Source: Phocaeicola dorei
GTDB taxonomy: Bacteria; Bacillota_I; Bacilli_A; RFN20; CAG-288
Direction of reading: 5' to 3'
Length of the DNA: 40,565 nt
NCBI GenBank assembly: GCA_963622735.1
Contig: CAVFIT010000050.1
Coordinates: 1 to 40,565, forward strand
This document shows positions 2,561-34,049 of this stretch, piece after piece. Within the stretch, counting starts at the first letter, position 1, and every line of letters begins with the position of its first letter. Position numbers and translations under genes: made by a program. Below the pieces are notes generated by a model. It made no database searches. It saw only the letters and a program-made list of their open reading frames with translations, and had not been told where the DNA came from.

Positions 2561-2598
2561 TAAAAACCCTTAAGTCTATTAAGTTTAACTTAAGGGTT
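2561..2598 (-). terminator. Rho-independent terminator ending the opp/metalloprotease transcription unit
   Basis: Perfect 11-bp inverted repeat AACCCTTAAGT (2565-2575) / ACTTAAGGGTT (2588-2598). The minus-strand stem runs into a T-rich tract (complement of A2562-2566), about 30 nt after the stop at 2629. Confidence 0.65.
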
Positions 2599-2628
2599 TA
2601 TTAAATAAGTATAATTTGAATATTTAGA

Positions 2629-4383
2629 TTAATCTAAAGTAATTTGAAGCTTACATGTATATCCATATGTATCATCTTCATCAATAGATAAGACCTTCAT
2701 ATTGTAATTACATGTTATAGAATCATCAATTTCAACAATTTCTTTACCTGCAGTTGTTCTACCTGTAATTGTTTTAGCTTTGTTCCATAAATTAGAACGA
2801 GAAGGCATATATTGACTAAATGCAGTACTGCTTAAATTGAATTTATGACCTTTACTAAATAAATCACTATTTGTAGCGTTATAGTTAGCAGAAGTCATCC
2901 AGTTAGAAGTAGAGCTACCATTAGATTGGATTAAAGAAACTAATGAATAATAACCTGTTTGTTTTTTACCAGAAGCATCTGTGTATGGGAATGTATCTGT
3001 AGCGTTAGAATTATTATTTCTTCCACCATAGGAATTATCAACTCTAAATTCTGTAGCTTCTTGACCGATTTTATCAGCATCAGAAACATAAGTATCATGA
3101 GGATATTTATCTTTAGATAAAGAATTATAAACTCTAGCATCAACATGTAAAATTCTTACACCAGGTTTTGTATAACCAGTAGTATTTTGATAACCATTGA
3201 TGTAGTCGTTTTTAGCTAAGCCTGTAGGACCAACAAGTTCTAAGATAAAGTATTCATCAAAAGCAGTACCATTATAATTAGGTGAAGCAAGCACTAATGA
3301 ATCACCACTATTTGTAAAGGCATTTAATGTAATAACAGCAGTCTTACCACCTTTTAATTGTTCTTCAGTTAAGATATATGGATTTGTCCAGCCTAATGTA
3401 AATTTAGAGAAAGCTGAATGATCACCTAAGTTTTGATCCATATAATCAACACTTCCCATAGGTTTCCATTTATTATTGTAATCATAATAATCATCTAAAC
3501 CGAAAGTATGACCTGTTTCATGGATAAATGTATGAGAATCATAACCATTACAGCCTTTAGACATAAAGCTAGTAGAAGCCCAGCCTAATGTTTTAACTGT
3601 AGGAGTATCTACATCAGCTTTTGTAGATGTATCATAAGTGACATAAGCCCACCAGTTGGAATTATAATCTTCAGGATAAGTATATACAATCCAGATTAAA
3701 TCCATAAAGCCATCACCATCAGCATCATAATAAGTAAATGGTTTAGCATTTTCACCTAATGCACCATGATTGTCTTTAGCATATTCTTGTAAATACCAAT
3801 TTCTACAATATTGAGCAGCATATACACCTGCATTTCCACTACAATCTGAATTAAATTGGCTAGCTGTACCATTATAGGTAATCCAAGGCATAACATCACA
3901 TTCAAATTTAGCCTTACCATAACTTGATTTAGTATAAAATGATTTAACTGAATAAGCTGTGTTATCAGTCTTTTCAGACATTACTTCATCACTAGCAGTA
4001 AATGTAGTAACAATTTTTTCTCTTACTTCTTCAGTAGCAGCAGTAGTCTTTTTATCATAATCAGATGTACCTGTTTGGAAAGTAAATGGAGCAACAAAAA
4101 CATGTTGACCACCTGTTGCAACAGGATTTAAATGAGGGCTATTTTGATTTCTATATAATGTATCTTGATTTAAATTAGCAGTTTTACCATCTTTTGTAGT
4201 ATAAGTAGTTTTACCTTTAGCTAAATCTTTTTCTGTTAAATCAGCTTTGATTTCAGATGAACTAGAAGATGAAGCTGAACTTGTTTGAGAAGAAATCACA
4301 CTACTAGTTGAATTATTACCACAGCTTGTAAGTGAAGCTAATACTACAAATACAGATAATGTTTTTAATAATTTCTTATTCAT
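2629..4383 (-). CDS. Surface lipoprotein, M6 (immune inhibitor A)-like zinc metalloprotease
   Basis: 584 aa. Signal peptide plus lipobox LASLTS-C-GNN, then a Ser-rich tether (SSASSSSSSE). HExxH zinc site in the context FIHETGHTFGLDDYYDY, which is the HExxHxxGLxDxY arrangement of M6-family peptidases. Confidence 0.65.
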   Translation of the reverse strand: MNKKLLKTLSVFVVLASLTSCGNNSTSSVISSQTSSASSSSSSEIKADLTEKDLAKGKTTYTTKDGKTANLNQDTLYRNQNSPHLNPVATGGQHVFVAPFTFQTGTSDYDKKTTAATEEVREKIVTTFTASDEVMSEKTDNTAYSVKSFYTKSSYGKAKFECDVMPWITYNGTASQFNSDCSGNAGVYAAQYCRNWYLQEYAKDNHGALGENAKPFTYYDADGDGFMDLIWIVYTYPEDYNSNWWAYVTYDTSTKADVDTPTVKTLGWASTSFMSKGCNGYDSHTFIHETGHTFGLDDYYDYNNKWKPMGSVDYMDQNLGDHSAFSKFTLGWTNPYILTEEQLKGGKTAVITLNAFTNSGDSLVLASPNYNGTAFDEYFILELVGPTGLAKNDYINGYQNTTGYTKPGVRILHVDARVYNSLSKDKYPHDTYVSDADKIGQEATEFRVDNSYGGRNNNSNATDTFPYTDASGKKQTGYYSLVSLIQSNGSSTSNWMTSANYNATNSDLFSKGHKFNLSSTAFSQYMPSRSNLWNKAKTITGRTTAGKEIVEIDDSITCNYNMKVLSIDEDDTYGYTCKLQITLD

Positions 4384-4439
4384 AATTTTTTCCTTTCTTT
4401 TTTTATTATTTTAAATTTCCTTATTAAAATATATTTAAA

Positions 4440-4889
4440 CTATGGTCTTAAATTATAATAAGGAATAAGTAAGAATAAACCAATAATTAAAAATATAGCT
4501 CCAACAATAAACATATACATAACATTTGGTTTATCTTTTTCACGCTTAAGTTCTTTATATTCAGCATAGTTTCTAGCAACTTTGGTCTCTTTTAAATCCT
4601 TATGGAAAGTTGAATAAAACACAACTTGAAGAGAATAAGTAAGCATATCAAATGCCCCTTGATAAGAACAATATACTAAAAAATAGCTCAATATAACTAT
4701 TAATCCTGATAATGAGAACCCATCAACTAAACACTTATAAAGAAAGTCTTTATTAGAATAATATTCTACACAAAATATTATAGTAAATAGTAATACACAT
4801 ACAATAAATGAGACTATTATTCCTATAATAAAGACTTTTCTTTTATCAGTATCTTTAACTTTATATGGTTTAATCTTGTTATCTTGCAT
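4440..4889 (-). CDS. Small polytopic membrane protein (possibly DUF3899-like), overlapping the end of oppF
   Basis: 149 aa with 3-4 hydrophobic helices (IIGIIVSFIVCVLLFTIIF, LSGLIVILSYFLVY, MYMFIVGAIFLIIGLFLLI). The ATG at 4889 overlaps the oppF stop (4879) by 11 nt, which implies co-transcription and translational coupling. The family assignment is from memory only. Confidence 0.55.
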   Translation of the reverse strand: MQDNKIKPYKVKDTDKRKVFIIGIIVSFIVCVLLFTIIFCVEYYSNKDFLYKCLVDGFSLSGLIVILSYFLVYCSYQGAFDMLTYSLQVVFYSTFHKDLKETKVARNYAEYKELKREKDKPNVMYMFIVGAIFLIIGLFLLIPYYNLRP

Positions 4890-6636
4890 AAACAGATTTA
4901 TTTTGTTTAAGTTCTTCTTTGTATTTTTCTTCTTCTACATCATTACATAATACAAAGTGACCTTTTTCAAGTTCTCTCATTGTAGGTTTTTGAGTTGAAT
5001 AATCATGTTCTAAGCTAGGATTATAAACAATTCTTTTTCTATTTGCTTCAACATTAGGATCAGGATAAGGAACAGCAGATAATAATGATTTAGTATAAGG
5101 ATGTAAAGGATGAGCAAATAACTCATCAGCAGTAGCAAGTTCTACTAAATTACCATAATACATAACCGCAATTCTATCACAGAAATATTTAACAACAGAT
5201 AAGTTATGAGCGATAAATATAATTGTTAAGCCTAAATTATTTCTTAAATCGTTAAGTAAGTTAATAACTTGAGCTTGAATAGAAACATCCAAAGCTGAAA
5301 CAGGTTCATCAGCGACAATTAATTCAGGATTCATGATAATAGCTCTAGCAATACCAATTCTTTGACGTTGACCACCAGAGAATTCATGAGGATATCTATT
5401 AGCATGTTCAGGAACTAAGCCGACTAATTTTAATACTCTTTCAACTTCTTTATTAATATATTCTTTATCATGAACACCTTGAATAGTTAAACCTTCAGCA
5501 ATAATATTTCTAACTGTCATTCTAGGATTTAAACTAGCGATAGGATCTTGGAAGATCATTTGAACTTTATTAGCGATATTTGTGGCTTTAGCTCTTTTAA
5601 TAGCTTGTTTATATTCATTATATTTGTTGTTATATTTTTCATAGACAACTTTAGCGTCTTGATAATCATTAATTAAAGAAGCATATTTTTGACTTACACT
5701 ATCTTTACTTTGCTTATCTTGACATGCAGATAATTCTTTTGAGTATTGATTATATTGATTAGAAAGATCTTTATATTTAGCTTTACTAGATTCATAGTTA
5801 GTGTTGTAATCATTAATAAATTCTTCATAATCTTTATTAACTTTTTCAACAGCTTGTTTAGAAATGTTTTTATTGTAATTTCTATCATCTTTTTTAGCTA
5901 ATTTGATTCTTTGCTTTTCAACAGAACAAATATCATGAGCCTTTTGTTTTTCATATAATACTTTTTCATCATAACTAGCTTTTAAAGCATCATATTTTTT
6001 AACATATTCTAACTTAGCATTTAAATTAGAATCTTGTTCTAATTGACTTGAACTAGGCTCTTTAATTTTAGAAAGGCTTCTATAATTAAATTGTTCATCA
6101 AAGTTATTAGTATATTCAATATTTAATTGATTAACTTCTTCATCAAACTCATTTTTAAATCTTTTTAAAGATTCTTTAAGTCTAATATTTGTAAACTTAA
6201 TTTCTTTTTCGTTCCATCTAGTACCTGCAGCGATTCTTATACCATCTAGATAAATATCACCAGAAGTGATTTTATATAACTTAAGAATATCTCTACCAGT
6301 AGTAGATTTACCACAACCAGATTCACCAACTAAGCCAAATACTTCACCTTTATAAACATCAAAAGATACATCATGTACAGCTTTTAAATATTTACTAGTT
6401 TCAGACTTAAATTTAAAGTATTGTTTTAAATGTTTAACTTTTAATAATAATTCAGCGTCAGTGTAATCAAATTGTTTTTGAAATTGAACAGGTTTAATTT
6501 CTTCTACATTAGTTTCTTTTGTAGTTTCTACATTTTTAGTAGCTGACTTAGTTTCTACATTTTTAGGAGTTGTAACTTTTTTAGTAGTTTTCTTTTTTGT
6601 TTGTTCTTCAACTACTTCTTTTTTAGCTTTAGCCAT
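4879..6636 (-). CDS. oppF: Oligopeptide ABC transporter ATP-binding protein OppF, with a Lys-rich N-terminal tail and an internal insertion of about 210 aa
   Basis: 585 aa. Walker A GESGCGKST, Q-loop QMIFQDP, signature FSGGQRQR, Walker B LIVADEPVSALD, and the oligopeptide C-terminal motif HPLHPYTKSLLSAVP. Its ATG shares one base with the oppD TAA (TAATG). Confidence 0.85.
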   Translation of the reverse strand: MAKAKKEVVEEQTKKKTTKKVTTPKNVETKSATKNVETTKETNVEEIKPVQFQKQFDYTDAELLLKVKHLKQYFKFKSETSKYLKAVHDVSFDVYKGEVFGLVGESGCGKSTTGRDILKLYKITSGDIYLDGIRIAAGTRWNEKEIKFTNIRLKESLKRFKNEFDEEVNQLNIEYTNNFDEQFNYRSLSKIKEPSSSQLEQDSNLNAKLEYVKKYDALKASYDEKVLYEKQKAHDICSVEKQRIKLAKKDDRNYNKNISKQAVEKVNKDYEEFINDYNTNYESSKAKYKDLSNQYNQYSKELSACQDKQSKDSVSQKYASLINDYQDAKVVYEKYNNKYNEYKQAIKRAKATNIANKVQMIFQDPIASLNPRMTVRNIIAEGLTIQGVHDKEYINKEVERVLKLVGLVPEHANRYPHEFSGGQRQRIGIARAIIMNPELIVADEPVSALDVSIQAQVINLLNDLRNNLGLTIIFIAHNLSVVKYFCDRIAVMYYGNLVELATADELFAHPLHPYTKSLLSAVPYPDPNVEANRKRIVYNPSLEHDYSTQKPTMRELEKGHFVLCNDVEEEKYKEELKQNKSVYAR

Positions 6637-8435
6637 TAGTTATTTCCTCCTTTCTGTTTTACACTATTTAAAATTGAATTCTTGTAATTTGAAGGACTTG
6701 GACAGTTTTCATAATTACATTCTTGTAAAGATTCTTTAATTCTATTGACTACGATTTTAGGTGCTTCAACATCAATTGCATTTGGATGTAATAACCATGT
6801 AGCAGCAAAGTGAGTATCACTTACTTTGAAAAATGGTGGTTGAGCAACAAAATCTTGTTTTAATGCATATTTATTTCTTAAAGCAAAGGCATCACCTTTT
6901 GGAGGTAATAACATGTTAGGAGGAGTGCCAGGAATAGCGTTAAGCTTTTCTTTTGTCTTTAAATCAGGCATAGATCCAAGTAAAGCCCAAGTATAAGGAT
7001 GTCTAGGATCATAGAAAATATCATAGACTGTTCCATATTCAACTATCTTACCTGCATACATAACTGCAATATCATCAGCCATGTTAGCAACAACACCTAA
7101 ATCATGAGTAATAAAGATAATTGATAAGTTCTTTTCAACTTTAAGCTTTTGAATAAGTTCAAGAATTTGAGCTTGAATAGTAACATCAAGAGCTGTTGTA
7201 GGTTCATCACAAATTAATACTTCAGGATTAGAAGATAAAGCGATAGCGATAACTATTCTTTGTCTCATACCACCTGAGAATTCAAATGGATATTGATTAT
7301 AACGTCTTTCTGGTTCATTAATACCGACTTCAGTTAATAATTCTAAAGCTCTTTGTTTACCTTCGGCTTTAGTCATACTTCCTTTTGAATCAATGACATT
7401 TTTTAAATAATTAATTTGAACCTTACTTGCGATAGAAGTTAATTCTTCTTTTGTCTTTGGTTGACTTACTTGTTCTAAATGATTAATTAATTCACTTGTT
7501 AATTGTTTAATAGCGTCAACATGTTCACTAGGTAAAGTTAATACTTCTCTAGATTGAGCTCTAATATTAGCAGGTAAATCATATACATCACTTACATTAT
7601 GTTTAGTTAATAATTCATTTGTCTTATTAATTAACTTTTCAGATTCTTTGATTTTGTTTAATAAATCTACTACTAAAGCATAATAAACTTGAATAGTATC
7701 ATCTGCTTCACTTGCTAAAGAGAATAAAGATTTATTTAATAATGATTTAATAATGCGTAAATCTTTTTTAAATGCATGAATATTAACATCTTTATAATTA
7801 ACATTATCTGCAAAATATGAAGTATTAAATTCATTTAACTTGTCTAATGCAGCTCTAGAACTAACTTGTTGTTTATCAATTTCTTGACTACAAGCTTTAA
7901 TAAAGAAATCTCTAGAATCATTTAAATTAAATGATTTATCTTCTTTAGTTAAACTAGAAGCGTATTCTTGTAATACATTAAAATCTTCTTTAGAAATTTT
8001 ACTTAAGATTTTATTTACTTTAGATAAATATTTTTTAGCGTTTTTTACTGTTGCTTTAGATTTTAAAATCATAGCTTCAGTAAGTTGCTTACCTACTTTC
8101 ATAATAGGATTTAAGCTTGAAAGAGGGTCTTGGAAGATCATTGAAATCTTAACACCTCTAATTTTTGTAAAGTCTTCTTCTTGTAATTTTAATAAATCTT
8201 TACCTTCAAAGATAATTTGACCATCTTCAACTATCTTATTATTGGCTAAAATACCTAAGATAGCTTTAGATGTAACAGATTTACCTGAACCAGATTCACC
8301 AACAATAGCAAGAGTCTTACCCTTATATAAAGAGAAAGAAATACCTCTAACAGCTTTAACTGTACCACCATTAGTTTTAAATGATATACGAAGGTTTTTA
8401 ACTTCGAGAACTTTTTCTTGTTGTTTTTGTTCCAT
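6636..8435 (-). CDS. oppD: Oligopeptide ABC transporter ATP-binding protein OppD, with an internal insertion of about 225 aa
   Basis: 599 aa. Walker A GESGSGKSV, Q-loop MIFQDPLSSLNP, signature FSGGMRQR, Walker B LICDEPTTALD, and C-terminal PRHPYTWALLGSMP. Confidence 0.85.
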   Translation of the reverse strand: MEQKQQEKVLEVKNLRISFKTNGGTVKAVRGISFSLYKGKTLAIVGESGSGKSVTSKAILGILANNKIVEDGQIIFEGKDLLKLQEEDFTKIRGVKISMIFQDPLSSLNPIMKVGKQLTEAMILKSKATVKNAKKYLSKVNKILSKISKEDFNVLQEYASSLTKEDKSFNLNDSRDFFIKACSQEIDKQQVSSRAALDKLNEFNTSYFADNVNYKDVNIHAFKKDLRIIKSLLNKSLFSLASEADDTIQVYYALVVDLLNKIKESEKLINKTNELLTKHNVSDVYDLPANIRAQSREVLTLPSEHVDAIKQLTSELINHLEQVSQPKTKEELTSIASKVQINYLKNVIDSKGSMTKAEGKQRALELLTEVGINEPERRYNQYPFEFSGGMRQRIVIAIALSSNPEVLICDEPTTALDVTIQAQILELIQKLKVEKNLSIIFITHDLGVVANMADDIAVMYAGKIVEYGTVYDIFYDPRHPYTWALLGSMPDLKTKEKLNAIPGTPPNMLLPPKGDAFALRNKYALKQDFVAQPPFFKVSDTHFAATWLLHPNAIDVEAPKIVVNRIKESLQECNYENCPSPSNYKNSILNSVKQKGGNN

Positions 8436-8438
8436 AAA

Positions 8439-10133
8439 TTAGTCCTCACTTCCTTTTAAAGAGGTGTTAAATGCATCTCTTAAACCGTTACCAAATAAGT
8501 TAAAGCAAATCATTAATAAAGAAATAATAATTGCTGGGAATAATAATACATGTGGGTTAAGATCTAATCCAGCTGATTGACCTTCAGAAAGTAATGTACC
8601 AATAGAAGAAATACCAGAAGATGTTAAATCAATAATACCTAAATAAGATAATGTAGATTCAGAGAAGATAACACTAGGAATCATTAATACTGTAGAAGTA
8701 ACTAATGTACCAATAGCGTTAGGTAAAATATGTTTAAAGATCAATCTAGAATCTTTAGCACCTAATGTTCTACTAGCTAGTACATATTCTTGGCCTTTAA
8801 ATCTATAAAATTGCATTCTTGTAGTAGAAGCAACACCAACCCATCCGTTATACACAAACGCAATCAGCAACGCCAATACAGTAATACCTGCACTACCTAG
8901 ACTACCTTTTAAAGATAAGTTATTAGTAAATTGAATAGAACAAATAGTTAAGATAATTAAAGAAGGAACATTAGAAATAATATCTGTAATTCTTTCCATA
9001 ATTAAATCTGTTGTACCACCATAATAACCAGAAATAGCACCCCAAATTAAACCGATAATAAAGTTAATTAAAGAAACCCCTATACCTAAGCCTAATGAGA
9101 ATAAAGCACCAATAGCAAGTCTAGAGAAAATATCTTGACCTTGGCCATTAGCACCAAATGTCATATATGGTGTCATATTATATTTATATGTAAAGTAATC
9201 AAAATAATCTACTCTTAATTCATATTGTTGACCACTATTTAATTCAGCATAGATGTAATTACCATTACTGTCTTTTTGATATAAGCTAACTACTTTACCA
9301 TTTTCTGTAACAGGAACATATCTATTTGAGTTATAATCACCATTTGATTTTTTATAAGCGGCCATTTTATACCAAACATTAGAATTGTTTTGATAATATG
9401 TTGTTAATTTATCTTTAATTTCACCAATAACAGATTCACCAACACCTTCTTCAGTTAATTGTTGAATATATTCATCAATATATTCAGTATAACCAACTAA
9501 AGGTTTAATAAGAGATTTACTATCTACTTTATAAGATGATTTATCACTAGAAGTGTATGTTAATAAGCCTTTAGCTTGTTGATCATCTAATAATTTTTGA
9601 TATTCGTCTGCACTTAAATAAATAATCTTATTACCAACAGCATAGGTATCTCTTCTAATATTGTAACTTGTAGTAACACTAGAACCTACTCTAGTAGAAG
9701 TTGTAGATAATAATTTAGCTACTTGGTGATTAGAATCATCATTAACATATGTTGTATAAACAGCTTCAGAAACAGATTCATCTTTACTACCATCCCAAAA
9801 GCCAGTACCTTTAAATAATCCACAATAAGGAGTTACATATGCAAATCTTGCATCTTTAAAACCAGATGAAAATTCTGAATAAGATTGAGCTCTATATCCT
9901 TTTGAAGAAGCAAAAGGTACAATAATAGCATATAAAACGATAATTAAAATAATTACGCTAGCGACTATACTAGATTTATTTTTACAAAATCTATTAAAGC
10001 AGTCTCTAATATAACTTACAGGTTTAGTTTCAAAAGCTTGATCGTGTAAATTTTCTTCATTTAAAGCGAGAGTTAAATTTTCACTAGGAATAGATTCAAT
10101 ATTCATACTAGTATTATTTTTAATGTCTTCCAT
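8439..10133 (-). CDS. oppC: Oligopeptide ABC transporter permease OppC, with a large extracytoplasmic loop after TM1
   Basis: 564 aa. TM1 VASVIILIIVLYAIIVPF, then about 260 hydrophilic residues, then a typical BPD_transp_1 core (YYGGTTDLIMERITDIISNVPSLIIL; ASRTLGAKDSRLIFKHILPN). Confidence 0.85.
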   Translation of the reverse strand: MEDIKNNTSMNIESIPSENLTLALNEENLHDQAFETKPVSYIRDCFNRFCKNKSSIVASVIILIIVLYAIIVPFASSKGYRAQSYSEFSSGFKDARFAYVTPYCGLFKGTGFWDGSKDESVSEAVYTTYVNDDSNHQVAKLLSTTSTRVGSSVTTSYNIRRDTYAVGNKIIYLSADEYQKLLDDQQAKGLLTYTSSDKSSYKVDSKSLIKPLVGYTEYIDEYIQQLTEEGVGESVIGEIKDKLTTYYQNNSNVWYKMAAYKKSNGDYNSNRYVPVTENGKVVSLYQKDSNGNYIYAELNSGQQYELRVDYFDYFTYKYNMTPYMTFGANGQGQDIFSRLAIGALFSLGLGIGVSLINFIIGLIWGAISGYYGGTTDLIMERITDIISNVPSLIILTICSIQFTNNLSLKGSLGSAGITVLALLIAFVYNGWVGVASTTRMQFYRFKGQEYVLASRTLGAKDSRLIFKHILPNAIGTLVTSTVLMIPSVIFSESTLSYLGIIDLTSSGISSIGTLLSEGQSAGLDLNPHVLLFPAIIISLLMICFNLFGNGLRDAFNTSLKGSED

Positions 10134-11176
10134 TATTTTTTACCTCCCATTCTAATTCTAGGGTCAACAAAGCCATATGATAAATCTACAATTAATGAGC
10201 CGACTAATCCAATCAAAACATAGAACATAGCGACAAATTGGAATACATCATAGTCTCTAGTTTGAATTGATTGTAAGAATAAAGAACCAACACCATTAAC
10301 AGCAAAGATGTTTTCAATAATCATTGAACCAGATAATACTGAAATAATTTCACCTAAAATCATTGGAAAAATAGGTACTAAAGAGTTTCTCATAGCATGT
10401 CTAATAGTAGCTTGACCTCTTGATAAACCTTTAGTTCTAGCTAATAACATAAAATCTGAAGTTAAAACTTCTGTTAATTCAGCTCTAGTATATCTAGCAA
10501 AACCAGCGATAGAGCCAAATGACATAGATAAAACAGGTAAAATCATTGATAAGAACATACTAGGTTCAAACCATGAGTTATTAAATGTCGCTCTAATAGC
10601 AGGTAAACATTTTAATTTATATGCAAATATATATTGTAATAAGAAAGCATAGACAAATGAAGGAACAGAAATAAATAACATAACAACTACTGATAAGAAG
10701 TTATCTTGCCATTTATTCTTTTTCAAAGCCATATAAATACCAAGTCCTAATCCTAAAGGAATAGAAATAATCATGGAATAAATATTAATTAAAATAGTTG
10801 GAGGTAATTGTCTTCCTAAGACTTCTAAAGGTGAAGTTAACCATGCGATTTTCCATGAATAGCCCCATCTAGATAATTCATGAACAGTACCATCACTACC
10901 CACGTATGTTGTTGGTACAAATAAATTCTTAATAAATGTGCCTAATTGTTGTAAAACTGGAACATTATAATAATTTCCATCACTGCCTTTATACATTCTA
11001 CCCATAGAAACTTGTGTAATGTAGAACATCTCAGGATCTTTACCAGGTGCATCTGCAGCTGTAATTGGTAACATTCTTACCAAAATGAAACACAAAATAA
11101 AGATAATTACAAAGGTCACAACAAGCAGTAGCAAACGCTGACCAATGTACTTTAGCATTTGTTTTAAATCTCTCAT
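10133..11176 (-). CDS. oppB: Oligopeptide ABC transporter permease OppB
   Basis: Canonical OppB N-terminus MLKYIGQRLL and EAA-type loop LARTKGLSRGQATIRHAMRNSL. The ORF-track start at 11194 is a TTG. I prefer the first ATG (11176, MRDLKQMLKY...); the ATG at 11158 is also possible. The stop overlaps the oppC start by 1 nt. Confidence 0.8.
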   Translation of the reverse strand: MRDLKQMLKYIGQRLLLLVVTFVIIFILCFILVRMLPITAADAPGKDPEMFYITQVSMGRMYKGSDGNYYNVPVLQQLGTFIKNLFVPTTYVGSDGTVHELSRWGYSWKIAWLTSPLEVLGRQLPPTILINIYSMIISIPLGLGLGIYMALKKNKWQDNFLSVVVMLFISVPSFVYAFLLQYIFAYKLKCLPAIRATFNNSWFEPSMFLSMILPVLSMSFGSIAGFARYTRAELTEVLTSDFMLLARTKGLSRGQATIRHAMRNSLVPIFPMILGEIISVLSGSMIIENIFAVNGVGSLFLQSIQTRDYDVFQFVAMFYVLIGLVGSLIVDLSYGFVDPRIRMGGKK

Positions 11177-11196
11177 TTTTCTTCTCTCTTCCAATT

Positions 11197-11225
11197 AAAA
11201 AACTTCATAAACTAAAGTTTATGAA
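11197..11225 (-). terminator. Intra-operon hairpin (attenuator/partial terminator) just upstream of the oppB RBS
   Basis: Perfect 9-bp stem TTCATAAAC (11204-11212) / GTTTATGAA (11217-11225) with a 4-nt loop, followed on the minus strand by GTTTTTT. The stem is AT-only, so it is weak. Confidence 0.4.
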
Positions 11226-11281
11226 AATATAATACTATTAAATGATAAATTTTTAAAGTATTTTAGATAAACTTTTAAATT

Positions 11282-11321
11282 AAAAAGAGCCTAATAACTT
11301 ATTTTTTGTTATTAAGCCCTT
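11282..11321 (-). terminator. Intra-operon terminator-like hairpin after oppA
   Basis: Imperfect inverted repeat GAGCCTAATAAC (11287-11298) / GTTATTAAGCCC (11308-11319). It has a 7-bp perfect core plus GC pairs beyond one mismatch, and is followed on the minus strand by TTTTT (complement of A11282-11286). Confidence 0.45.
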
Positions 11322-11357
11322 ATTTAAATCAAATATTCGAAAAATTTCGATTATTTT

Positions 11358-14051
11358 TTATTCTTCAGCGTTTTTGTATAATGTGGATAAATCGCCACCT
11401 TGTTTATTAACAAAATCGTTCCAACCACTATTAGTATAGTTAAATGTCATAAATCTAATTCCACCATAACCAACTAATGAGACATAGTTAGAAGAACCTT
11501 GTTCAACTTTGAATGATGTTAATGAAGAAGTACCTCTAGCAACAATAGGGATAGCTTCAAATCTAGAAATAATACCAGCTTCAAGACCAGCTAAGATAGT
11601 TAATTTCTTATCAGTAGATGTAGCTGAATCCATTTCTGTATACCATGTTTCAAATGATTTAGTTTCGCCCTCACTAATAACGCCATCACCATTAAGATCG
11701 ATATCTAATAAGACTTCGTTTTGTTTGCCTTTGAAACCATATTCACAACAAGAAGCAAAATCAGATTTACAATAGACTTCCATTAATCCATATGGGTTAA
11801 TTTGAGCACCACCCCAAATAGAGAAGATCATATCATAGTTACCATTTTTAGCAGAATCATAATAGTTTTCATCTTTAACTGTTGAAACTTCAATTGAAAC
11901 ATTAGATCCTAATTTTTCGTTTGCACCTTTTACAACATTCTTCCAATATTCGTTTAATCTTGTATTAGCAGCAATTGTATTAGCGGAAGTATTATCATAA
12001 ACTCTAAATTCGATAGCAATTTTATCATTTTGAGTTAAATGACCTTCTTCAGTTGAATTAAATTCATCTTGGAAAGCTTTAGCAACATATTCAATAGCTA
12101 AGGCTTGGTTATAACCATAACTTGATTCAGGAAGTGCTTTATCTTCACCAATAGTTGTACCACCTAATTTACCATAAACTTGGTTATAAACAGATTTACC
12201 TTGTTCTGTGTCTCTATATTTTTTACCATGTTCAACATCAGAAAGATATAAATCGTTTAATAAACCTGTAAAGGCTTTAGAACCAGCAGTAGCTTGAGAA
12301 GCAAAGTCTTTTCTATTAAGAGATAAAGATAAACCTCTTCTAAAATCAGTATTAGCAAGAATGGTTTTATTACCAGAGCCCATACTTGTTTGTCTTTCTA
12401 ATAATTTACTTCTATTAGAGTTAAATGAAACTTTTGTTGTATATGATTCATAAACTGTTGTTAATCTACCAGAGTTACCAAAGTCTTTCATATCATCAGC
12501 AGTTAAATCAATATCATCTAACTTACCTTGTTTAAATAACATCATAGCTGTTGTATGATCAGTAATAATTTCAGTGTTTAAACCTGTCATTTGGAATTGA
12601 CCAACATGTTTACCATCATTCCAACCATACCAGTTTTCGTTTTTAACTAAGTTAATTGTCTTACCTGATTCATATTTTGATAATTTATAAGGACCAAAAG
12701 CCATATAGTTATCAATTGAATTTGTGGCATAACTTGTTTGCTTTGTACCATTAGCTTGAGTTGTGGTTAATTTTTCATATAAATCTGTTTTTACTAACCA
12801 GTTACTAGATAAGGCAAACTTTAAATTTAAATCAGTGATTTCTTTAGCAAGATAGAATCTAATTGTATAATCATCAACTTTAACTAAGCCGACATTATCC
12901 CATGTCTTTGTACTTGTGTTATAAACAGAAACATAAGACATGATTTTATAACCTTCTGTTTCACCCCATTTAGCTGTAATACCATATCTATTTAAACCAG
13001 TAACAATAGTATTCATATCAGCTATTAATTTTGCTTTAGAATACTCATCTGCATTTGTTCCTGTAATAGAAGAGTTATTAGCATCTTTTCTAACATAAAT
13101 TTTATTAGAATCAAATTCTTCAAAATCTATATCAGGATGATTTTCTAACATATCTTTACTAACTGAGTTAGCGCCTTCTTCTTTAGCTTTTTCCCAATCA
13201 GATTTATGTTCATCATAATAACCTTGATGTTTAGCATAATAAGAAGTATTAGAATAACCTTGTAATAAGAAAGATTTAACAGCATCTGTAATTCTACTAG
13301 CGGCTAAATTATTAGCTGCATTATCTGTAATCATACTTTGTTGGAATAATAAGTAAAGATTAGATGTAGATTCACTTGAACCAGAAGCATCATTGAAAAT
13401 ATTTTTAACCCAGTCATTTTCTCTACCAATATTTAAATAGTAGACATCATCTTGACATGAATTTTCATCAAATTCACCATTTGTTTTATCAACATGGTTA
13501 TAAGCAGATTCAACTGTAGATCTACCAGATTTAAAATAATCTTCAGCATTAGCAATAACTAAATTACCATTATAATAGCTATCAGCACGATAGTTAGCAT
13601 ATTTAGGATCAAGTTGAAGTTTCATAGATTCAACATAATCATCAGCTTTAATAGCAGTACCATCTTGCCATTTAGCGCTTTGATTTAATTTAATATCCCA
13701 AATTAAACCTTCACCAACGTTACCATTATAGTATTTAGAAAGTGTAGCATCATCAATAGTAGATGGATCAACTGCAATAGGCATTTCAGCAGCCATTTCA
13801 GTAACAATTTCATAACCATCTTTTGTGGAATTTAAAATTGTGTCATATAAACCCATTTCTGTGTAACTAGTGATATAAGATTCATCACTAGTTTCCCAGT
13901 TATGTGTGTTCCATGTTTTAGGATTTGTAGAAATGTAGGTATTATAAACATAATCACCTAAATTAGAACTTGTATTATTACAGCTAGCTAAGCTAGTTGT
14001 AGAACAAAATCCTAATACTGTTAATAACGCTAAATAAGATTTTCTTTTCAT
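11358..14051 (-). CDS. oppA: Oligopeptide-binding lipoprotein OppA (family-5 solute-binding protein, enlarged)
   Basis: 897 aa. Lipobox SLAS-C-NN. Family-5 SBP hallmarks include MAFGPYKLSKYESGKTINLVKNENWYGW. It sits directly upstream of oppBCDF and is about 350 aa longer than typical OppA proteins. Confidence 0.8.
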   Translation of the reverse strand: MKRKSYLALLTVLGFCSTTSLASCNNTSSNLGDYVYNTYISTNPKTWNTHNWETSDESYITSYTEMGLYDTILNSTKDGYEIVTEMAAEMPIAVDPSTIDDATLSKYYNGNVGEGLIWDIKLNQSAKWQDGTAIKADDYVESMKLQLDPKYANYRADSYYNGNLVIANAEDYFKSGRSTVESAYNHVDKTNGEFDENSCQDDVYYLNIGRENDWVKNIFNDASGSSESTSNLYLLFQQSMITDNAANNLAASRITDAVKSFLLQGYSNTSYYAKHQGYYDEHKSDWEKAKEEGANSVSKDMLENHPDIDFEEFDSNKIYVRKDANNSSITGTNADEYSKAKLIADMNTIVTGLNRYGITAKWGETEGYKIMSYVSVYNTSTKTWDNVGLVKVDDYTIRFYLAKEITDLNLKFALSSNWLVKTDLYEKLTTTQANGTKQTSYATNSIDNYMAFGPYKLSKYESGKTINLVKNENWYGWNDGKHVGQFQMTGLNTEIITDHTTAMMLFKQGKLDDIDLTADDMKDFGNSGRLTTVYESYTTKVSFNSNRSKLLERQTSMGSGNKTILANTDFRRGLSLSLNRKDFASQATAGSKAFTGLLNDLYLSDVEHGKKYRDTEQGKSVYNQVYGKLGGTTIGEDKALPESSYGYNQALAIEYVAKAFQDEFNSTEEGHLTQNDKIAIEFRVYDNTSANTIAANTRLNEYWKNVVKGANEKLGSNVSIEVSTVKDENYYDSAKNGNYDMIFSIWGGAQINPYGLMEVYCKSDFASCCEYGFKGKQNEVLLDIDLNGDGVISEGETKSFETWYTEMDSATSTDKKLTILAGLEAGIISRFEAIPIVARGTSSLTSFKVEQGSSNYVSLVGYGGIRFMTFNYTNSGWNDFVNKQGGDLSTLYKNAEE

Positions 14052-14073
14052 TATATTTTTTCTCTCCTTTTAA

Positions 14074-15963
14074 TTAGTAACCAATACCAGTTGTACCAAT
14101 ATTGGTAATATCAAATGCCCATCTAGCAACTGTATAGGTTCCACTACTTGCAGACCATAATAAGTTTACACCGACATGGAATTCAGTATAAGCTTTGTCA
14201 ACTTTAGTAAATGAAATAGTAACTTCAGATGTTAAATCAGCCATACAACCAGCTTCAAAATAAGGATATGACCAATCACCTAAGAAATTCATTTGATTAT
14301 ATGTACTAGAATTAATTAAACCAATGATAAAATCAGAACAATATTTACCACTATTTAATGTAACATTTGTTGTGTTTTTATTTACAACAGAACTAGCAAT
14401 ACCAGCACTTTCAAATTCAACATCTGCAACAGATCTAGCACTTACATAAGTAAATACATCTTTATCACCAAGACTAGATGTAGTTGTAGCAGGTTCATCT
14501 AATAATGAATAAGATGTGTCACCTTTACTAATATTTGTAATAACATCAACTTTTGTTGAATCTTCTGAATTTTTATTATAAAACACGTAACCTTTCTTAG
14601 ATTCGTCTTCTTGAGTAGGATCAGTTAAAACTGAACCAAAGCCAGAAACTAATGTTTCTTCAACTGCATCTTGAGTGAATTTCTTTTTAGCTACAGTAGG
14701 TGTTGCAAATCTAGGTAATAAATATGCCAAATTTTCAGGAGTATATCCATCAGGTAATTCACTTACTTCTTTATAATTACCAAATGTTCCTGTTTCATCA
14801 TCAACAGTAGCTGTAAACCAACCAAATGTTTCTTCAATAGTATAGTTTTTACCACTAGCAATTGCTTTTAATGCAGTATCAATACCTGGATCAGTAATAG
14901 GATCAGGTTGACCTGTTGTAGAAATATAATTTTCAACTGCAGCAATACCAACTTTATCACCTACTTCTAAAATAGAAGCACTTAATAAGCCTGTTTTTGT
15001 ACCTGAAGTAATATATGTGAATATAACTGGAGCTTCTGTAACAACTTTTTTACCATCTTGATCATAATAAGATACAGGTTGATAATCAATTTCAGCATTA
15101 CCAATACCATATCCAGCAGCTTTAATATTAGTTAAAGAATATCCTAAACCATATAAGATGAAATTTTCAGTAGCTTCACTAGTTAATTGTAATATTTCTT
15201 TTCCATCATCATCTTTTGTTGTAACTGCATCAGTAAGAGCGGAAATTGGGAAATCAGCACCAACATAGAAATCAGTTAATTCATTACCTGTAGGACCTTG
15301 TTGAACATTTAAATCAGTGCCAAATCTATCTGACATTGTATAGTAATAAACTTCACTATCTGCGCCAAGTAAGTATCCGATTTTAGCACTACTTTGTAAA
15401 AAGCCTACATATTGTTCATTATGGACTGTACCTGTTTGATTACCAACAAATCCATTATCGTCAATAATAAATCCATTACTATCTTCAGCAAGATCTTCTA
15501 CTGTGTAATTTTTTACAACATCCTTTGTTTCTTCATAGAATCTCTTCTTTAAAGCAGAAACACCTGTAATAGTTAAATTAGCTCTAACACCTTCAGCTTG
15601 AACACCATTTTGAATTCTTAAAGAAATAGTGCCTTCACTAGTAACAGTTAATTTATGACCTGCTAAGCTAGCATAGTCACTACCACCAGTAAGAGTAACT
15701 GTATAGTTATTATCACTAGGAGTTACTTGTTGAGAATTGACATCAAATAAATTGATGTAATCATCAATACTAATTGTAGAACCAATAGTGACAACTGTAT
15801 CAGCGCTTTTATTAATTGTAATTCTTTGAACTGTAGCATCTCCACTAGTTTGGGATGTAGATGTAGAAGTAGTTCCACTAGAAGTAGTTCCACCACAGCT
15901 TGTTAATGTAGTACCTGTTAATAATAATGCTACACATAAAGGTAAGATAACTTTCTTTTTCAT
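14074..15963 (-). CDS. Orphan surface lipoprotein with an N-terminal Ig-like (Big_2-like) domain
   Basis: 629 aa. Lipobox TLTS-C-GG and a Thr/Ser tether (TTSSGTTSTSTSQTS). The segment VTIGSTISIDDY...HKLTVTSEGTISLRIQ...ANLTITG resembles a bacterial Ig-like domain. I see no catalytic motif in the rest. AGGAGAG RBS, 22 nt upstream of oppA. Confidence 0.75.
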   Translation of the reverse strand: MKKKVILPLCVALLLTGTTLTSCGGTTSSGTTSTSTSQTSGDATVQRITINKSADTVVTIGSTISIDDYINLFDVNSQQVTPSDNNYTVTLTGGSDYASLAGHKLTVTSEGTISLRIQNGVQAEGVRANLTITGVSALKKRFYEETKDVVKNYTVEDLAEDSNGFIIDDNGFVGNQTGTVHNEQYVGFLQSSAKIGYLLGADSEVYYYTMSDRFGTDLNVQQGPTGNELTDFYVGADFPISALTDAVTTKDDDGKEILQLTSEATENFILYGLGYSLTNIKAAGYGIGNAEIDYQPVSYYDQDGKKVVTEAPVIFTYITSGTKTGLLSASILEVGDKVGIAAVENYISTTGQPDPITDPGIDTALKAIASGKNYTIEETFGWFTATVDDETGTFGNYKEVSELPDGYTPENLAYLLPRFATPTVAKKKFTQDAVEETLVSGFGSVLTDPTQEDESKKGYVFYNKNSEDSTKVDVITNISKGDTSYSLLDEPATTTSSLGDKDVFTYVSARSVADVEFESAGIASSVVNKNTTNVTLNSGKYCSDFIIGLINSSTYNQMNFLGDWSYPYFEAGCMADLTSEVTISFTKVDKAYTEFHVGVNLLWSASSGTYTVARWAFDITNIGTTGIGY

Positions 15964-15984
15964 AATTTATATTCTCCTTTTTTA

Positions 15985-17844
15985 TTATTCACCAGTTGAT
16001 GAACTTGTTGTATTAGCAATACTTGGGCTAATTGCTAAATAATAATAACTACTTGATTTTAAAACTGTACATTCAATAGAAATAGTTTTACTAACTCCAT
16101 TAATTGTTACATTTTTAGAATAAATACCTGTAGTTGTATCATATGCATATCCAGCATCTATAAACTTATCATTAATACTTGTAACCATATTTTTTAATTC
16201 AGTAGTAGAAGATGTTGAATATGTTAAATAGTATGTATATTCTTCAGTAGTTGAATCTTGTGTTCCATTAACACCATATGTAGGATAAACTCCACCTAAA
16301 GTAGGAACATATGTATCTAATACTTCTGCAGTCATACCTTCACCAAATATTTCTTCAGGTGTAGCAACACCAGTTTTAGTAGAATTATAATATCCACAAG
16401 AATCTTCCCATGAATCAGACCACTTTAACTCATCGCAGTTATTTTTAACTGGTAAGTTAATAACTGAACCTGTACTAACTTTATTAATATTAGAATAAGT
16501 AATTTTATCAACAATTGTCATTGGGAATGCATATGAAGTACTATATTGATAATAAGTTTCATATGTATTAGTAAATGAAATTGTAGGATTTGTAGGATCA
16601 CTATTATCTAAAGTAATTGTAAATCCATCAAAACTAAACGCTGTTTCAATAGGTGAATAGTTTTTAGAATATTCTTGAACTGGGAAGACATCATCTCTAA
16701 ATACATAAACTGATTTAGTTGATGTAGATTTACTAGTATCTTTTTTAAATAAGGCACTAGATAAAGAATATTCAGGGAAGAAATCTTCTTTTAATGTAAC
16801 ACCTGTTGTTTCAGATCCATCTTGATAGAAATTTTCTTTAACTTTACTAAGTTGAATAACACCACTTTTAGTAGTTTGCATAGCGCTAGTAGACATTAAT
16901 GCTTTACCACTATCGTCTACACTATAAGAATATAATATAAAGTCTTTACCATCAGTTTTACCATCATATTCATATGTAGCAGATTGAGATTCTGTTTCTG
17001 AATATGTAATTGAAGCTTGTCTAGTAGAAACAAATTCAAAATTACAAGCTTGTAATGATTTAATAGCTGCATCTAAAGTTGCATCAGTGTCAGTTAATAC
17101 TGTAGGTAAGCTAGTTAAATTATCACCAAACTTAGTAAATTTACCACTGACACTAACATCTACATTAGCACCACTTGATGTAGTAGCTGCTTCATAAGTA
17201 ACATTACAACTAATAACATTATTTTCAACTGAGAAAGTACAAGCTTTAGCCTCAACAGATAATCCACCACTTAAGTTAACACCAAGTGCAATTAAAGCTT
17301 CTTTTTGGCTAGAAGAAACAGTTCTTAATTTAAATCCGCTTACTGCTTTTGTAAAATCGTCAATAGTAAGATTTGTAAATGGATTAATAAAACTTGTGTT
17401 ATCCCAACTAAGAGGTTTACCTGTAGATGCAGAAGTAAGAACTTTATTCTTAATTTGATTGTCTAAACCTAAATAAGTACTACAAGCATAACCAAGTTTA
17501 TTTTTTGTGTAATAAACTTTATCATATGCTGTATCTTTTGTAGGAACATCTCCAGTAGATGCAACAGGTTCATAACTAATAGAATTATAAACTCCATCAC
17601 TAATAGAAACATCGTTGAGATATTTTGAAACTGAACTGCCTGATTTTAAAAGTACAGTAGCTTCAAATAAATAATTTTGTTTCAATTGAGCTAAATAGGA
17701 TTCAAAGACAGCAACATCAGAATCTACACTAGAAGTAGAAGAAGATGTGGTAGAAGAAGTAGAATTTGAGTTATTTTGACCACCACAACTTGTTAATGTT
17801 ACGCCTAATAAAGCCAAAGCAATAATAGACTTAAATTTTTTCAT
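15985..17844 (-). CDS. Orphan surface lipoprotein, first gene of the opp transcription unit
   Basis: 619 aa. Lipobox TLTS-C-GG and a Ser/Thr tether (NNSNSTSSTTSSSTSS). The composition is beta-rich and Thr/Ser/Tyr-rich, with no motif I can assign. AGGAGAA RBS. Confidence 0.75.
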   Translation of the reverse strand: MKKFKSIIALALLGVTLTSCGGQNNSNSTSSTTSSSTSSVDSDVAVFESYLAQLKQNYLFEATVLLKSGSSVSKYLNDVSISDGVYNSISYEPVASTGDVPTKDTAYDKVYYTKNKLGYACSTYLGLDNQIKNKVLTSASTGKPLSWDNTSFINPFTNLTIDDFTKAVSGFKLRTVSSSQKEALIALGVNLSGGLSVEAKACTFSVENNVISCNVTYEAATTSSGANVDVSVSGKFTKFGDNLTSLPTVLTDTDATLDAAIKSLQACNFEFVSTRQASITYSETESQSATYEYDGKTDGKDFILYSYSVDDSGKALMSTSAMQTTKSGVIQLSKVKENFYQDGSETTGVTLKEDFFPEYSLSSALFKKDTSKSTSTKSVYVFRDDVFPVQEYSKNYSPIETAFSFDGFTITLDNSDPTNPTISFTNTYETYYQYSTSYAFPMTIVDKITYSNINKVSTGSVINLPVKNNCDELKWSDSWEDSCGYYNSTKTGVATPEEIFGEGMTAEVLDTYVPTLGGVYPTYGVNGTQDSTTEEYTYYLTYSTSSTTELKNMVTSINDKFIDAGYAYDTTTGIYSKNVTINGVSKTISIECTVLKSSSYYYLAISPSIANTTSSSTGE

Positions 17845-17884
17845 GTTTATTGATTCTCCTTTTTAATCGAATAAAATCGATAAT

Positions 17885-17913
17885 ATTATAATATAAAACA
17901 ATACATTTATCAA
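17885..17913 (-). promoter_or_regulatory. Near-consensus sigma-70-type promoter of the lipoprotein-opp-protease unit
   Basis: The minus strand reads TTGATA (17913-17908), a 17-nt spacer, then TATAAT (17890-17885). It lies about 40 nt upstream of the ATG at 17844 and just downstream of the atp terminator. Confidence 0.6.
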
Positions 17914-24969: not shown

Positions 24970-25638
24970 TTATACTGTAGGTAAACTAATATTAGGCATT
25001 GAATATTCATAATTCAATGTAATTGTACATGTATATGATGCTTTAGTTAAATATTCAAATTCTAGTTTAGCGATTTTTTCAACACTATCAATTTTTTGAA
25101 CACTACCTTTTATAGTCACATCACTATTTACATCACTTATTTCTTTGGTAAAAAATGCTGTAGTATCATCTTTTAATACTTTTGAAGTAAATGAAGAACT
25201 AGTTCCACTAATTTCTTGTAACACTTGGAAATTATAACTAATAGAAAATACTTTAATTGTATTAGTTTCATCTTTAATAGAATACTTACCATCATCACCT
25301 AATGTATATGTTTTACTAGGTGAATAATATATATTAAACGCTTTAGTTTTACTATCACTTCCAGAAGGATTATCAACACTATTTATAATAGCTTTTGTAC
25401 CATAATTATGTAAGATATTTGACTCAGTATTTACTTCATAATTAGAATAAGTAGAAGAAATAGTCTGCCCTTTGTTAGAAATATTAGTAGAACTTCTAAT
25501 AATATAAGGACTTTTCTCAGCTTGTATAATAGTTTGTTTAATATCAGCTATACCTGAACTAGAATTATTATTACCTCCACATGAAGTCATTGATACTAAT
25601 AATAATGATAAAGGTAATATTACTAATTTCTTATTCAT
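24970..25638 (-). CDS. Orphan small lipoprotein
   Basis: Start reassigned to the ATG at 25638 (MNKKLVILPLSLLLVSMTS-C-GGNNNSSSG), which is preceded by AGGAGGG. The ORF-track TTG at 25674 overlaps the upstream gene. No assignable motif. Confidence 0.7.
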   Translation of the reverse strand: MNKKLVILPLSLLLVSMTSCGGNNNSSSGIADIKQTIIQAEKSPYIIRSSTNISNKGQTISSTYSNYEVNTESNILHNYGTKAIINSVDNPSGSDSKTKAFNIYYSPSKTYTLGDDGKYSIKDETNTIKVFSISYNFQVLQEISGTSSSFTSKVLKDDTTAFFTKEISDVNSDVTIKGSVQKIDSVEKIAKLEFEYLTKASYTCTITLNYEYSMPNISLPTV

Positions 25639-25654
25639 AATCTTTTCCCTCCTT

Positions 25655-30394: not shown

Positions 30395-30418
30395 ATGCCT
30401 GAATCAAAGGAGATAAAA

Positions 30419-33865: not shown

Positions 33866-33941
33866 GGGGCTGTAGCTCACCTGGGAGAGCGCCTCCATGG
33901 CATGGAGGAGGTAGCGAGTTCGATCCTCGTCAGCTCCACCA
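33866..33941 (+). tRNA. tRNA-Ala (anticodon GGC)
   Basis: 76 nt and folds as a cloverleaf. Acceptor GGGGCTG/CAGCTCC with the G3:U70 alanine identity pair. Anticodon stem CCTCC/GGAGG, loop ATGGCAT, T-loop TTCGATC, and an encoded CCA. Confidence 0.9.
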
Positions 33942-33965
33942 GCATTTAAAAAATATAATATTTAT

Positions 33966-34042
33966 GGCAGCGTAGCTCAGTTGGTTAGAGCGCTCGGCTC
34001 ATACCCGATATGTCGAGGGTTCGAATCCCCCCGCTGCTACCA
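33966..34042 (+). tRNA. tRNA with CAU anticodon, most likely elongator tRNA-Met
   Basis: 77 nt. Acceptor GGCAGCG/CGCTGCT (G1:U72), D-arm GTAGCTCAGTTGGTTAGAGC, anticodon loop CTCATAC, T-loop TTCGAAT, encoded CCA. It lacks the initiator features (no C1-A72 mismatch, no GGG/CCC anticodon stem). Confidence 0.75.
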
Positions 34043-34049
34043 TTGTATT

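Follow-up and report, generated by a model that had tools for sequence, protein, structure and literature searches.

The stretch of DNA considered here is contig CAVFIT010000050.1 of assembly GCA_963622735.1, a window of 40,565 nucleotides with a GC content of approximately 28%. On its minus strand, nine collinear open reading frames (ORFs) span positions 17844-2629, between a sigma-70-like promoter that agrees with the consensus at 11 of 12 positions and a hairpin followed by a T-run. In gene order, these ORFs encode two lipoproteins (lp619 and lp629), the five components of an oligopeptide (Opp) ABC importer, a small membrane protein of the DUF3899 family and a lipoprotein that is predicted to be an M6-like zinc protease (Table 1). 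A preliminary description of this region had placed ten genes in a single-promoter unit. The gene order that it gave, a list of nine genes in spite of the stated ten, is reproduced by the ORF calls, with the correction that there are nine genes, as the spacer between oppA and oppB holds no further ORF of at least 20 amino acids. An 88-amino acid ORF on the plus strand (11509-11775) was considered as the tenth gene and disregarded, since it lies antisense inside oppA.

The genes are tightly packed. In gene order, the junctions measure 21, 22, 163 (181 from the probable ATG of oppB), -1, 3, -1, -11 and 56 nt, so that seven of the eight are at most 56 nt long or overlap, the exception being the oppA-oppB spacer. 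All four lipoproteins carry a lipobox of the form L-x-x-C (LTSC20 in lp619, LTSC23 in lp629, LASC24 in OppA and LTSC21 in the protease), which is followed in each case by a Ser/Thr-rich linker. Upstream, the unit borders the end of an atp operon, with the atpC terminator at 17986-17966, and the 140-nt gap there holds the promoter. Downstream lies a TetR gene (2520-1960). The TetR gene and the atp operon were each considered as parts of the module and set aside, as they are conserved with the cluster only in the closest relatives.

Table 1. Genes and putative signals of the opp-protease unit, in minus-strand order.
Feature	Position	Strand	Description
Promoter	17913-17885	-	-35 TTGATA 17913-17908, 17-nt spacer, -10 TATAAT 17890-17885
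TCGA-N6-TCGA, copy 1	17867-17880		Just downstream of the promoter -10
lp619	17844-15985	-	619-aa lipoprotein, Cys20, Ser/Thr-rich linker
lp629	15963-14074	-	629-aa lipoprotein, Cys23
oppA	14051-11358	-	897-aa family-5 substrate-binding lipoprotein, Cys24
TCGA-N6-TCGA, copy 2	11337-11350		Directly after the oppA stop codon
Post-oppA hairpin	11321-11285; U-run 11284-11280	-	14-bp stem, then UUUUUAAUUU
Candidate internal promoter	11257-11204	-	-35-like TTTAAA 11257-11252, -10 TATTAT 11234-11229
Palindrome TTCATAAAC-N4-GTTTATGAA	11225-11204	-	Just ahead of the ribosome-binding site of oppB
oppB	11176-10133 (probable ATG)	-	Permease; longest ORF from TTG 11194
oppC	10133-8439	-	Permease, 564 aa
oppD	8435-6636	-	ATPase, 599 aa
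oppF	6636-4879	-	ATPase, 585 aa
DUF3899 gene	4889-4440	-	149-aa membrane protein, approximately three transmembrane segments
Protease gene	4383-2629	-	584-aa lipoprotein, Cys21, Ser-rich linker, carries HETGHTFGLDDYY
Terminal hairpin	2598-2561	-	13-bp stem and UUUUUA, intrinsic-terminator-like

The protease carries a HExxHxxGxxD motif at residues 288-298 (nt 3522-3490), which reads H288-E-T-G-H292-T-F-G295-L-D-D298. In an alignment of 54 homologues with 45-81% identity, H288, E289, G291, H292, G295 and D298 are invariant, and the site is therefore under selection. The TIGR03296 M6 domain is matched over nearly the full length of the model (E 2.5e-20), with a score of 73.5 bits that lies under the cut-off of 110.8. 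No Pfam family, Peptidase_M6 included, is matched at E <= 0.01. Sequence searches of the Protein Data Bank (PDB) return no InhA match, the sole hit being to the motif of snapalysin (M7) at E 0.39. The AlphaFold2 (AF2) model built on the 54-homologue alignment has a predicted local distance difference test score (pLDDT) of 91 and a predicted template modelling score (pTM) of 0.89. When this model is compared with the PDB by Foldseek, the only significant matches are the zymogen structures of Bacillus anthracis InhA2, 4yu6 and 4yu5 (E 1e-9 to 1.5e-8, probability 1.0, TMq 0.44-0.46, approximately 10% identity), and the next match lies at E 0.023.

The protein is thus a predicted zinc peptidase of the InhA/M6 fold that falls outside the curated sequence boundaries of M6, for which “M6-like” is an apt term. 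This bears out the M6-like zinc protease of the preliminary description: the modelled fold matches that of InhA2, an M6 enzyme, and the invariance of H288, E289, H292, G295 and D298 speaks against a catalytically dead protein. From its motif, the protein would act as a zinc-dependent endopeptidase, on the putative substrates proposed below. More than 300 relatives of the protease are found, nearly all of them in uncultured “Bacilli bacterium” assemblies. In three related loci, a second, diverged M6-like paralogue lies directly downstream of the first (L024, 11668-13590; L030, 11884-13377; L028, 11801-13993 on the minus strand), and L030 has another complete opp operon at a distance of 4 kb.

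Loss of this neighbourhood in relatives had been named beforehand as grounds for refutation, and it is not seen. All 22 related loci (numbered here with the prefix L) keep the opp genes, the DUF3899 gene and the protease gene side by side; in these loci, the protease is 43-80% identical, the GC content ranges from 25 to 53% and the flanks differ. The protease gene lies after oppF-DUF3899 in 21 of the 22 and is divergent from oppA in the remaining one (L015). The complete collinear arrangement oppABCDF-DUF3899-protease is present in L001, L007, L008, L009, L010, L011 and L012; the cassettes of L007-L012 come from a scan of species-representative genomes with OppA, followed by local annotation. 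Look-ups of three protease relatives (80%, 48% and 50% identity) show the same gene order: oppA-B-C-D-F, then a transmembrane protein of approximately 150 amino acids, then the protease. The genes downstream of the protease differ in all three, being a HI0933-like gene, ribonucleotide reductase and uvrA. A scan of metagenomes with a protease profile adds 13 further close loci (GC 25-53%), in all of which the protease gene is immediately preceded by oppF and the DUF3899 gene, within the reach of the contig.

The linkage has limits on both sides. Distant M6-like homologues (23-33% identity) on the longer contigs L035 and L039 are not beside opp, and the association with opp is therefore specific to this protease subfamily. 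Conversely, the distant enlarged Opp systems of L014, L016 and L017, with OppA proteins that are 29-32% identical, are without a protease gene, although the L017 contig ends within oppF. One locus, L007 (CAVHUN010000035.1), has the full atp-lp619-lp629-opp-protease layout of the window, with an OppA that is 72% identical. It is deposited as “uncultured Prevotella sp.”, which is probably a binning or labelling error.

The 149-amino acid protein encoded between oppF and the protease gene belongs to DUF3899 (PF13038, E 3.1e-10, 40.7 bits against a Pfam gathering cut-off of 23.4). Its gene overlaps oppF by 11 nt, and the protein would be translationally coupled to oppF. It comes after oppF in every related locus, including the distant, protease-less L014 and L016. 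The DUF3899 protein appears to be the more widespread companion of Opp, with the protease as a clade-specific addition, because those two distant enlarged systems keep the DUF3899 gene without the protease. A DUF3899 gene has also been described as embedded in the oppA-oppBCDF-tldR operon of Enterococcus faecalis V583 (bioRxiv 10.64898/2026.09.22.753285). The DUF3899 protein may be a general, unrecognized Opp-associated subunit.

The five opp genes encode a complete Opp-type ABC importer, as judged by Pfam and NCBIfam matches: a family-5 binding protein, two BPD_transp_1 permeases and two oligo_HPY ATPases. OppA matches PF00496 (SBP_bac_5) at E 1.4e-34, and its orthologues in the relatives measure 886-941 amino acids. 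OppB matches PF00528 at E 9.4e-39. The best NCBIfam matches of OppB and OppC are Opp3B and Opp3C, respectively, both under the equivalog cut-offs. The start of oppB is most likely ATG 11176 as opposed to TTG 11194, which lies 18 nt upstream, because the relatives keep the ATGAGAGA start, giving a protein of 347 amino acids. OppC matches both PF00528 (BPD_transp_1, residues 361-559, E 1.4e-22) and PF12911 (OppC_N, residues 40-86). Between OppC_N with the first transmembrane segment and the core permease domain, it carries an insert of approximately 220 amino acids (roughly residues 90-312). This insert is absent from the NCBIfam OppC models (302-328 positions), which align from residue 313 on, and the size of OppC is kept in the relatives at 546-575 amino acids. 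By the standard topology of OppC, the insert is probably extracytoplasmic.

Both ATPases carry PF00005 (ABC_tran) and PF08352 (oligo_HPY), and both have an insert in the nucleotide-binding domain, which is large in OppD and rich in Lys, Glu and Asn in OppF. The best NCBIfam matches are MMSYN1_0167 for OppD (E 6e-141) and MMSYN1_0168 for OppF (E 4e-118), with alignments that span the inserts. The scores, 470.9 bits against a cut-off of 740 for the former and 395.8 against 800 for the latter, do not reach the equivalog cut-offs. By these model matches, OppD and OppF are of the Mollicutes-type architecture without being equivalogs. The “enlarged” importer of the preliminary description is enlarged indeed, but the enlargement is not novel in itself, as the Mollicutes type is already represented in NCBIfam by MMSYN1_0167 and MMSYN1_0168. 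Oligopeptide transport by OppABCDF is predicted from these gene families.

The two lipoproteins at the head of the unit differ in their distribution. As single sequences and as profiles, neither lp619 nor lp629 has a credible match in Pfam, NCBIfam or the PDB. The possibility that they are paralogous to each other, to OppA or to the protease was considered and rejected, as BLASTP and hhalign align solely the signal peptide and the Ser/Thr linker. A link from lp619 to the protease, which emerged in rounds 2-3 of an iterated hidden Markov model (HMM) search, was discarded as linker-borne contamination. A search with a fused lp619 and lp629 profile returned relatives of lp619 alone.

The lp629 protein evolves fast, and a word-based search finds six relatives. 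A remote homologue that aligns with lp629 over the full length (hhalign 98.9%, E 3.9e-17) is the lipoprotein of approximately 640 amino acids whose gene directly precedes oppA in L009, L010, L012 and L013. A profile search of 1.84 billion representatives extends the family to 49 clusters at 50% identity, nearly all of approximately 600 amino acids and with a lipobox. A Pfam scan of ten family members finds no domain. In L025, L026 and L028, there is no lp629-type gene upstream of oppA, and a family-wide HMM locates a member just downstream of the protease gene. Overall, a gene of the lp629 family adjoins oppA upstream or the protease downstream in 16 of the 18 loci with visible flanks, the exceptions being L011 and L015. 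This distribution points to lp629 as a core component of the locus. The conserved positions of lp629 are mostly Gly, Tyr and Pro, together with H181 and Y185, and no catalytic motif is evident among them. The AF2 model from a six-sequence alignment is poor (pLDDT 46.5), except for residues 55-135, which form an N-terminal Ig-like (Big_2-like) domain; Foldseek gives weak matches to Big_2 domains and is otherwise uninformative.

Homologues of lp619 are confined to the closest relatives (P0127-P0131, L007, L040 and L041, and two copies in L008). The copies in L008 (“Bacillales bacterium UBA6879”) are a tandem duplication at 3776-5791 and 5881-7887, and these paralogues match each other at E 6.8e-88. 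On this distribution, lp619 is a lineage-specific accessory and not part of the core. Of the two lipoproteins that had been assigned to the module, lp629 can thus be retained on its presence in 16 of 18 loci, and lp619, found in the closest relatives only, cannot.

The signals around these genes bear on how the unit may be transcribed. The promoter upstream of lp619, TTGATA-17-TATAAT, is the best match in the 19 kb scanned. Promoter-like matches are not enriched, as 101 are found and 121.7 are expected in shuffled sequence; therefore, the motif score alone proves little, and the support for this promoter comes from its position and conservation. The window, L040, L007 and L041, whose lp619 proteins are only 44-58% identical, share the same -35 hexamer, and the region after the -10 is conserved too. 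On being the best match, on position and on the conservation of the -35, the near-consensus promoter proposed earlier for this site holds. There are two occurrences of the motif TCGA-N6-TCGA in 40.5 kb, where 0.04 would be expected, and they both lie inside the unit. Copy 1 is kept in full in L040, with the core GATTTTATTC kept in L007 and L041. Copy 2 is kept in L001/L002 and L007 and folds as a 5-bp hairpin. The motif may represent an operator, an element of the 5′ untranslated region or a small RNA hairpin.

At the other end of the unit, the terminal hairpin folds at -15.4 kcal/mol (z = -4.5), and no shuffled sequence folds equally well; it was overlooked by a simple terminator scan. It had been presented as the only strong terminator. 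The hairpin is real, but it is not the only one, since the post-oppA hairpin is equally strong at -15.5 kcal/mol (z = -5.8 for the spacer). A strong hairpin is found at the post-oppA position in 16 of 17 related loci, with differing sequences, and the oppA-oppB spacer is the sole long junction in all 17 loci compared. The post-oppA hairpin is likely a partial terminator or an mRNA stabilizer that would raise the expression of lp619-lp629-oppA over that of the downstream genes. The 56-nt gap before the protease gene contains no hairpin.

The same spacer holds a second candidate signal. A -10-like AGTAT(G/T/A)AT box and a palindrome CATAAAC-N4-6-GTTTATG are kept, with compensatory changes, in the window, L001 (~3150-3190), L007 (~12830-12870) and L008 (~12870-12905), and the remainder of the spacer is poorly conserved. 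The palindrome before oppB folds at -7.5 kcal/mol. The layout of this element resembles that of an internal promoter with an operator or a 5′ stem-loop. Rfam reveals no riboswitch, T-box or other known RNA leader, its sole matches in the window being three tRNAs.

Taken together, these features make the single-promoter unit doubtful. The tight junctions (seven of eight) favor it, but the post-oppA hairpin, the conserved position of that hairpin and the -10-like box before oppB do not. The most economical reading would be a two-tier unit, in which transcription starts at the conserved promoter at 17913-17885. The post-oppA hairpin would then end or stabilize some transcripts, resulting in more lp619, lp629 and OppA. 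Expression of oppBCDF, the DUF3899 gene and the protease gene would depend on read-through, on the internal promoter-like element or on both, and all transcripts would end at the terminator at 2598-2561. It is common for opp operons to express the binding protein above the membrane components.

Elsewhere in the window, a block of surface-protein genes (24970-25674, 25655-28714, 28729-30228 and 30395-31525) encodes three lipoproteins with Ser/Thr (or Thr/Pro) linkers and a 1019-amino acid protein with an N-terminal signal-like segment, and the organism appears to be rich in lipoproteins. The tRNA genes lie in tandem on the plus strand, at 33866-34122.

The reading that we favor, with moderate confidence, is that of a conserved proteolysis-plus-import locus for peptide nutrition. 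Its host is an uncultured low-GC lineage of the gut and rumen, the genomes of which carry the database names “Bacilli bacterium” or “Bacillales bacterium”. The core of the locus comprises the Mollicutes-type Opp, the DUF3899 protein, the membrane-tethered InhA/M6-fold protease and one lipoprotein of the lp629 family, with lp619 as an extra. On the cell surface, the lipid-anchored protease would cut up extracellular proteins or long peptides. OppA would capture the resulting oligopeptides, and OppBCDF would import them into the cell. It is proposed that lp629 and the DUF3899 protein act as accessory components of the surface and membrane, perhaps in substrate capture or assembly. What the analysis shows is the gene content, the conserved synteny, the invariant active-site residues, the modelled fold of the protease and the conserved non-coding elements; the steps of cleavage, capture and import, the activity and substrates of the protease, its physical or functional coupling to Opp and the structure of the transcripts are inferred.

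Several observations weigh against this interpretation. The enlarged Opp systems of L014, L016 and L017 are without a protease, and the importer does not need one. The protease lies under the curated M6 cut-off and has no Pfam match, and the specificity of InhA is not transferable to it. As lp629 and lp619 have no recognizable domain and the model of lp629 is of low confidence, the mechanistic part assigned to them is a guess. All organisms with the locus are uncultured. The conserved adjacency itself fits defence against antimicrobial peptides, the maturation of pheromones or the processing of lipoproteins equally well.

The first of these, antimicrobial-peptide defence, would have an InhA-like surface protease cleave cationic peptides of the host or of competitors, with an Opp/Sap-like importer clearing the fragments for degradation in the cytoplasm. 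InhA, or “immune inhibitor A”, was named for degrading antibacterial peptides of insects, and Sap transporters belong to the same ABC subfamily and import antimicrobial peptides. The InhA2-like fold, the presence of SapB, SapC, SapD and SapF among the weaker NCBIfam matches to the permeases and ATPases, and the origin of the organisms in gut and rumen samples all agree with such a role. However, the best matches of the transporter are to OppB, OppC, OppD and OppF and not to Sap, OppA is a family-5 peptide-binding protein, and the protease is only 10% identical to InhA2. Universal retention in apparently small genomes also better suits a housekeeping role in nutrition, and defence is considered unlikely. 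An equally improbable explanation is that the protease matures, sheds or turns over OppA, lp629 and lp619 without feeding the transporter, similar to the endoproteolysis of surface proteins in mycoplasmas. In its favor, large lipoproteins with long Ser/Thr linkers are encoded alongside the protease in every case, and extra copies of the protease and of lp629 come and go together around the cluster (L024, L025, L028 and L030); yet in L011 the cluster keeps its protease although neither an lp629-like nor an lp619-like gene is visible.

Pheromone peptides usually enter the cell through Opp, and some of them are matured by extracellular metalloproteases. The protease could accordingly trim secreted pro-pheromones that are re-imported by Opp, as in the RRNPP-type quorum sensing of Firmicutes. 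The putative TCGA-N6-TCGA operator at the promoter hints at dedicated regulation of this kind. However, neither an RRNPP regulator nor a gene for a small pro-peptide is present within the unit or next to it, be it in the window or in the relatives, and the adjoining TetR gene is not a conserved neighbour of the cluster, which leaves signalling very unlikely. The lowest probability is given to adjacency by descent alone, with the protease and lipoproteins acting independently of Opp. Although lp619 is clearly dispensable across the clade, this explanation is strongly disfavored because all 22 loci are conserved, despite GC contents of 25-53%, protease identities down to 43% and reshuffled flanks. 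The adjacency also persists in L015, where the protease gene is on the other side of the operon.

A bolder version of proteolysis coupled to import is conceivable, though we regard it as rather doubtful. The protease, the lp629-family lipoprotein and the DUF3899 protein would dock on the ectodomains of OppA and OppC to form an integrated “protein utilization” machine, in which products pass straight to the transporter and lp629 represents a new class of Opp accessory receptor. If true, this machine would be the monoderm, peptide-directed counterpart of the polysaccharide utilization loci of Bacteroidetes. Should the coupling of the protease to Opp be real in the simpler form, the locus would offer a testable account of how abundant, uncultured, small-genome bacteria of the gut and rumen feed on host or dietary protein. 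Opp-linked M6-like lipoprotein proteases, the lp629 family, which has no Pfam model, and DUF3899 would thereby gain a first functional context. Joining an extracellular protease to Opp within one operon would then be an evolutionarily stable design, extending the textbook model of Lactococcus, in which transporter and surface proteinase come from separate loci.

Each part of the locus has a known counterpart. The protease resembles InhA of the Bacillus cereus group (MEROPS M6) in its HExxHxxGxxD zinc site, in the fold of the whole protein and in its match to TIGR03296. It differs in being approximately 10% identical, in having 584 amino acids where the matched chains have 689-754, in being anchored as a lipoprotein as opposed to freely secreted, and in its fixed opp context. 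In the local motif HETGHxLGLxDxY it is nearly identical to snapalysin (M7), but that match (E 0.39) covers 28 residues alone, and snapalysin, a single-domain protein of approximately 130 amino acids, is absent from the significant Foldseek matches.

The importer is similar to the Mollicutes-type Opp, as represented by MMSYN1_0165-0168 of JCVI-syn1 and by P100/OppA of Mycoplasma hominis, in its very large OppA lipoprotein and in the inserts within the nucleotide-binding domains of OppD and OppF. The OppA of M. hominis has been described as a multifunctional surface lipoprotein (PMC3179953). Unlike that type, OppC of the window has an extra ectodomain of approximately 220 amino acids that is lacking in the 307-position MMSYN1_0166 model, and the scores are under the equivalog cut-offs. 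A literature search found no protease, lp629 or DUF3899 partner described for the opp operons of mycoplasmas. In the E. faecalis V583 operon, the DUF3899 gene is antisense and encodes approximately 100 amino acids, whereas that of the window is in the sense direction, overlaps oppF and is followed by the protease gene. A search of the full-text literature, the coverage of which is incomplete, turned up no description of an opp operon with an M6-like lipoprotein, and none of one that also includes DUF3899 and a lipoprotein of the lp629 type.

The closest likeness in biological terms is to the proteolytic system of Lactococcus lactis. There, PepO is an M13 enzyme of the cytoplasm, and the gene for the extracellular proteinase PrtP (S8) lies outside the operon. 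In both systems, extracellular proteolysis feeds, or would feed, Opp, and an endopeptidase gene lies with the opp genes, with that of L. lactis being co-transcribed with the opp genes as oppDFBCA-pepO (PMC3138775). The operon-linked enzyme of the window differs in being lipid-anchored, predicted to be surface-exposed and M6-like; in addition, its gene cluster has oppA first and includes the genes of the lp629 family and DUF3899. A surface protease that feeds Opp is expected biology, and the locus is a sensible extension of these known systems as opposed to a new kind of system.

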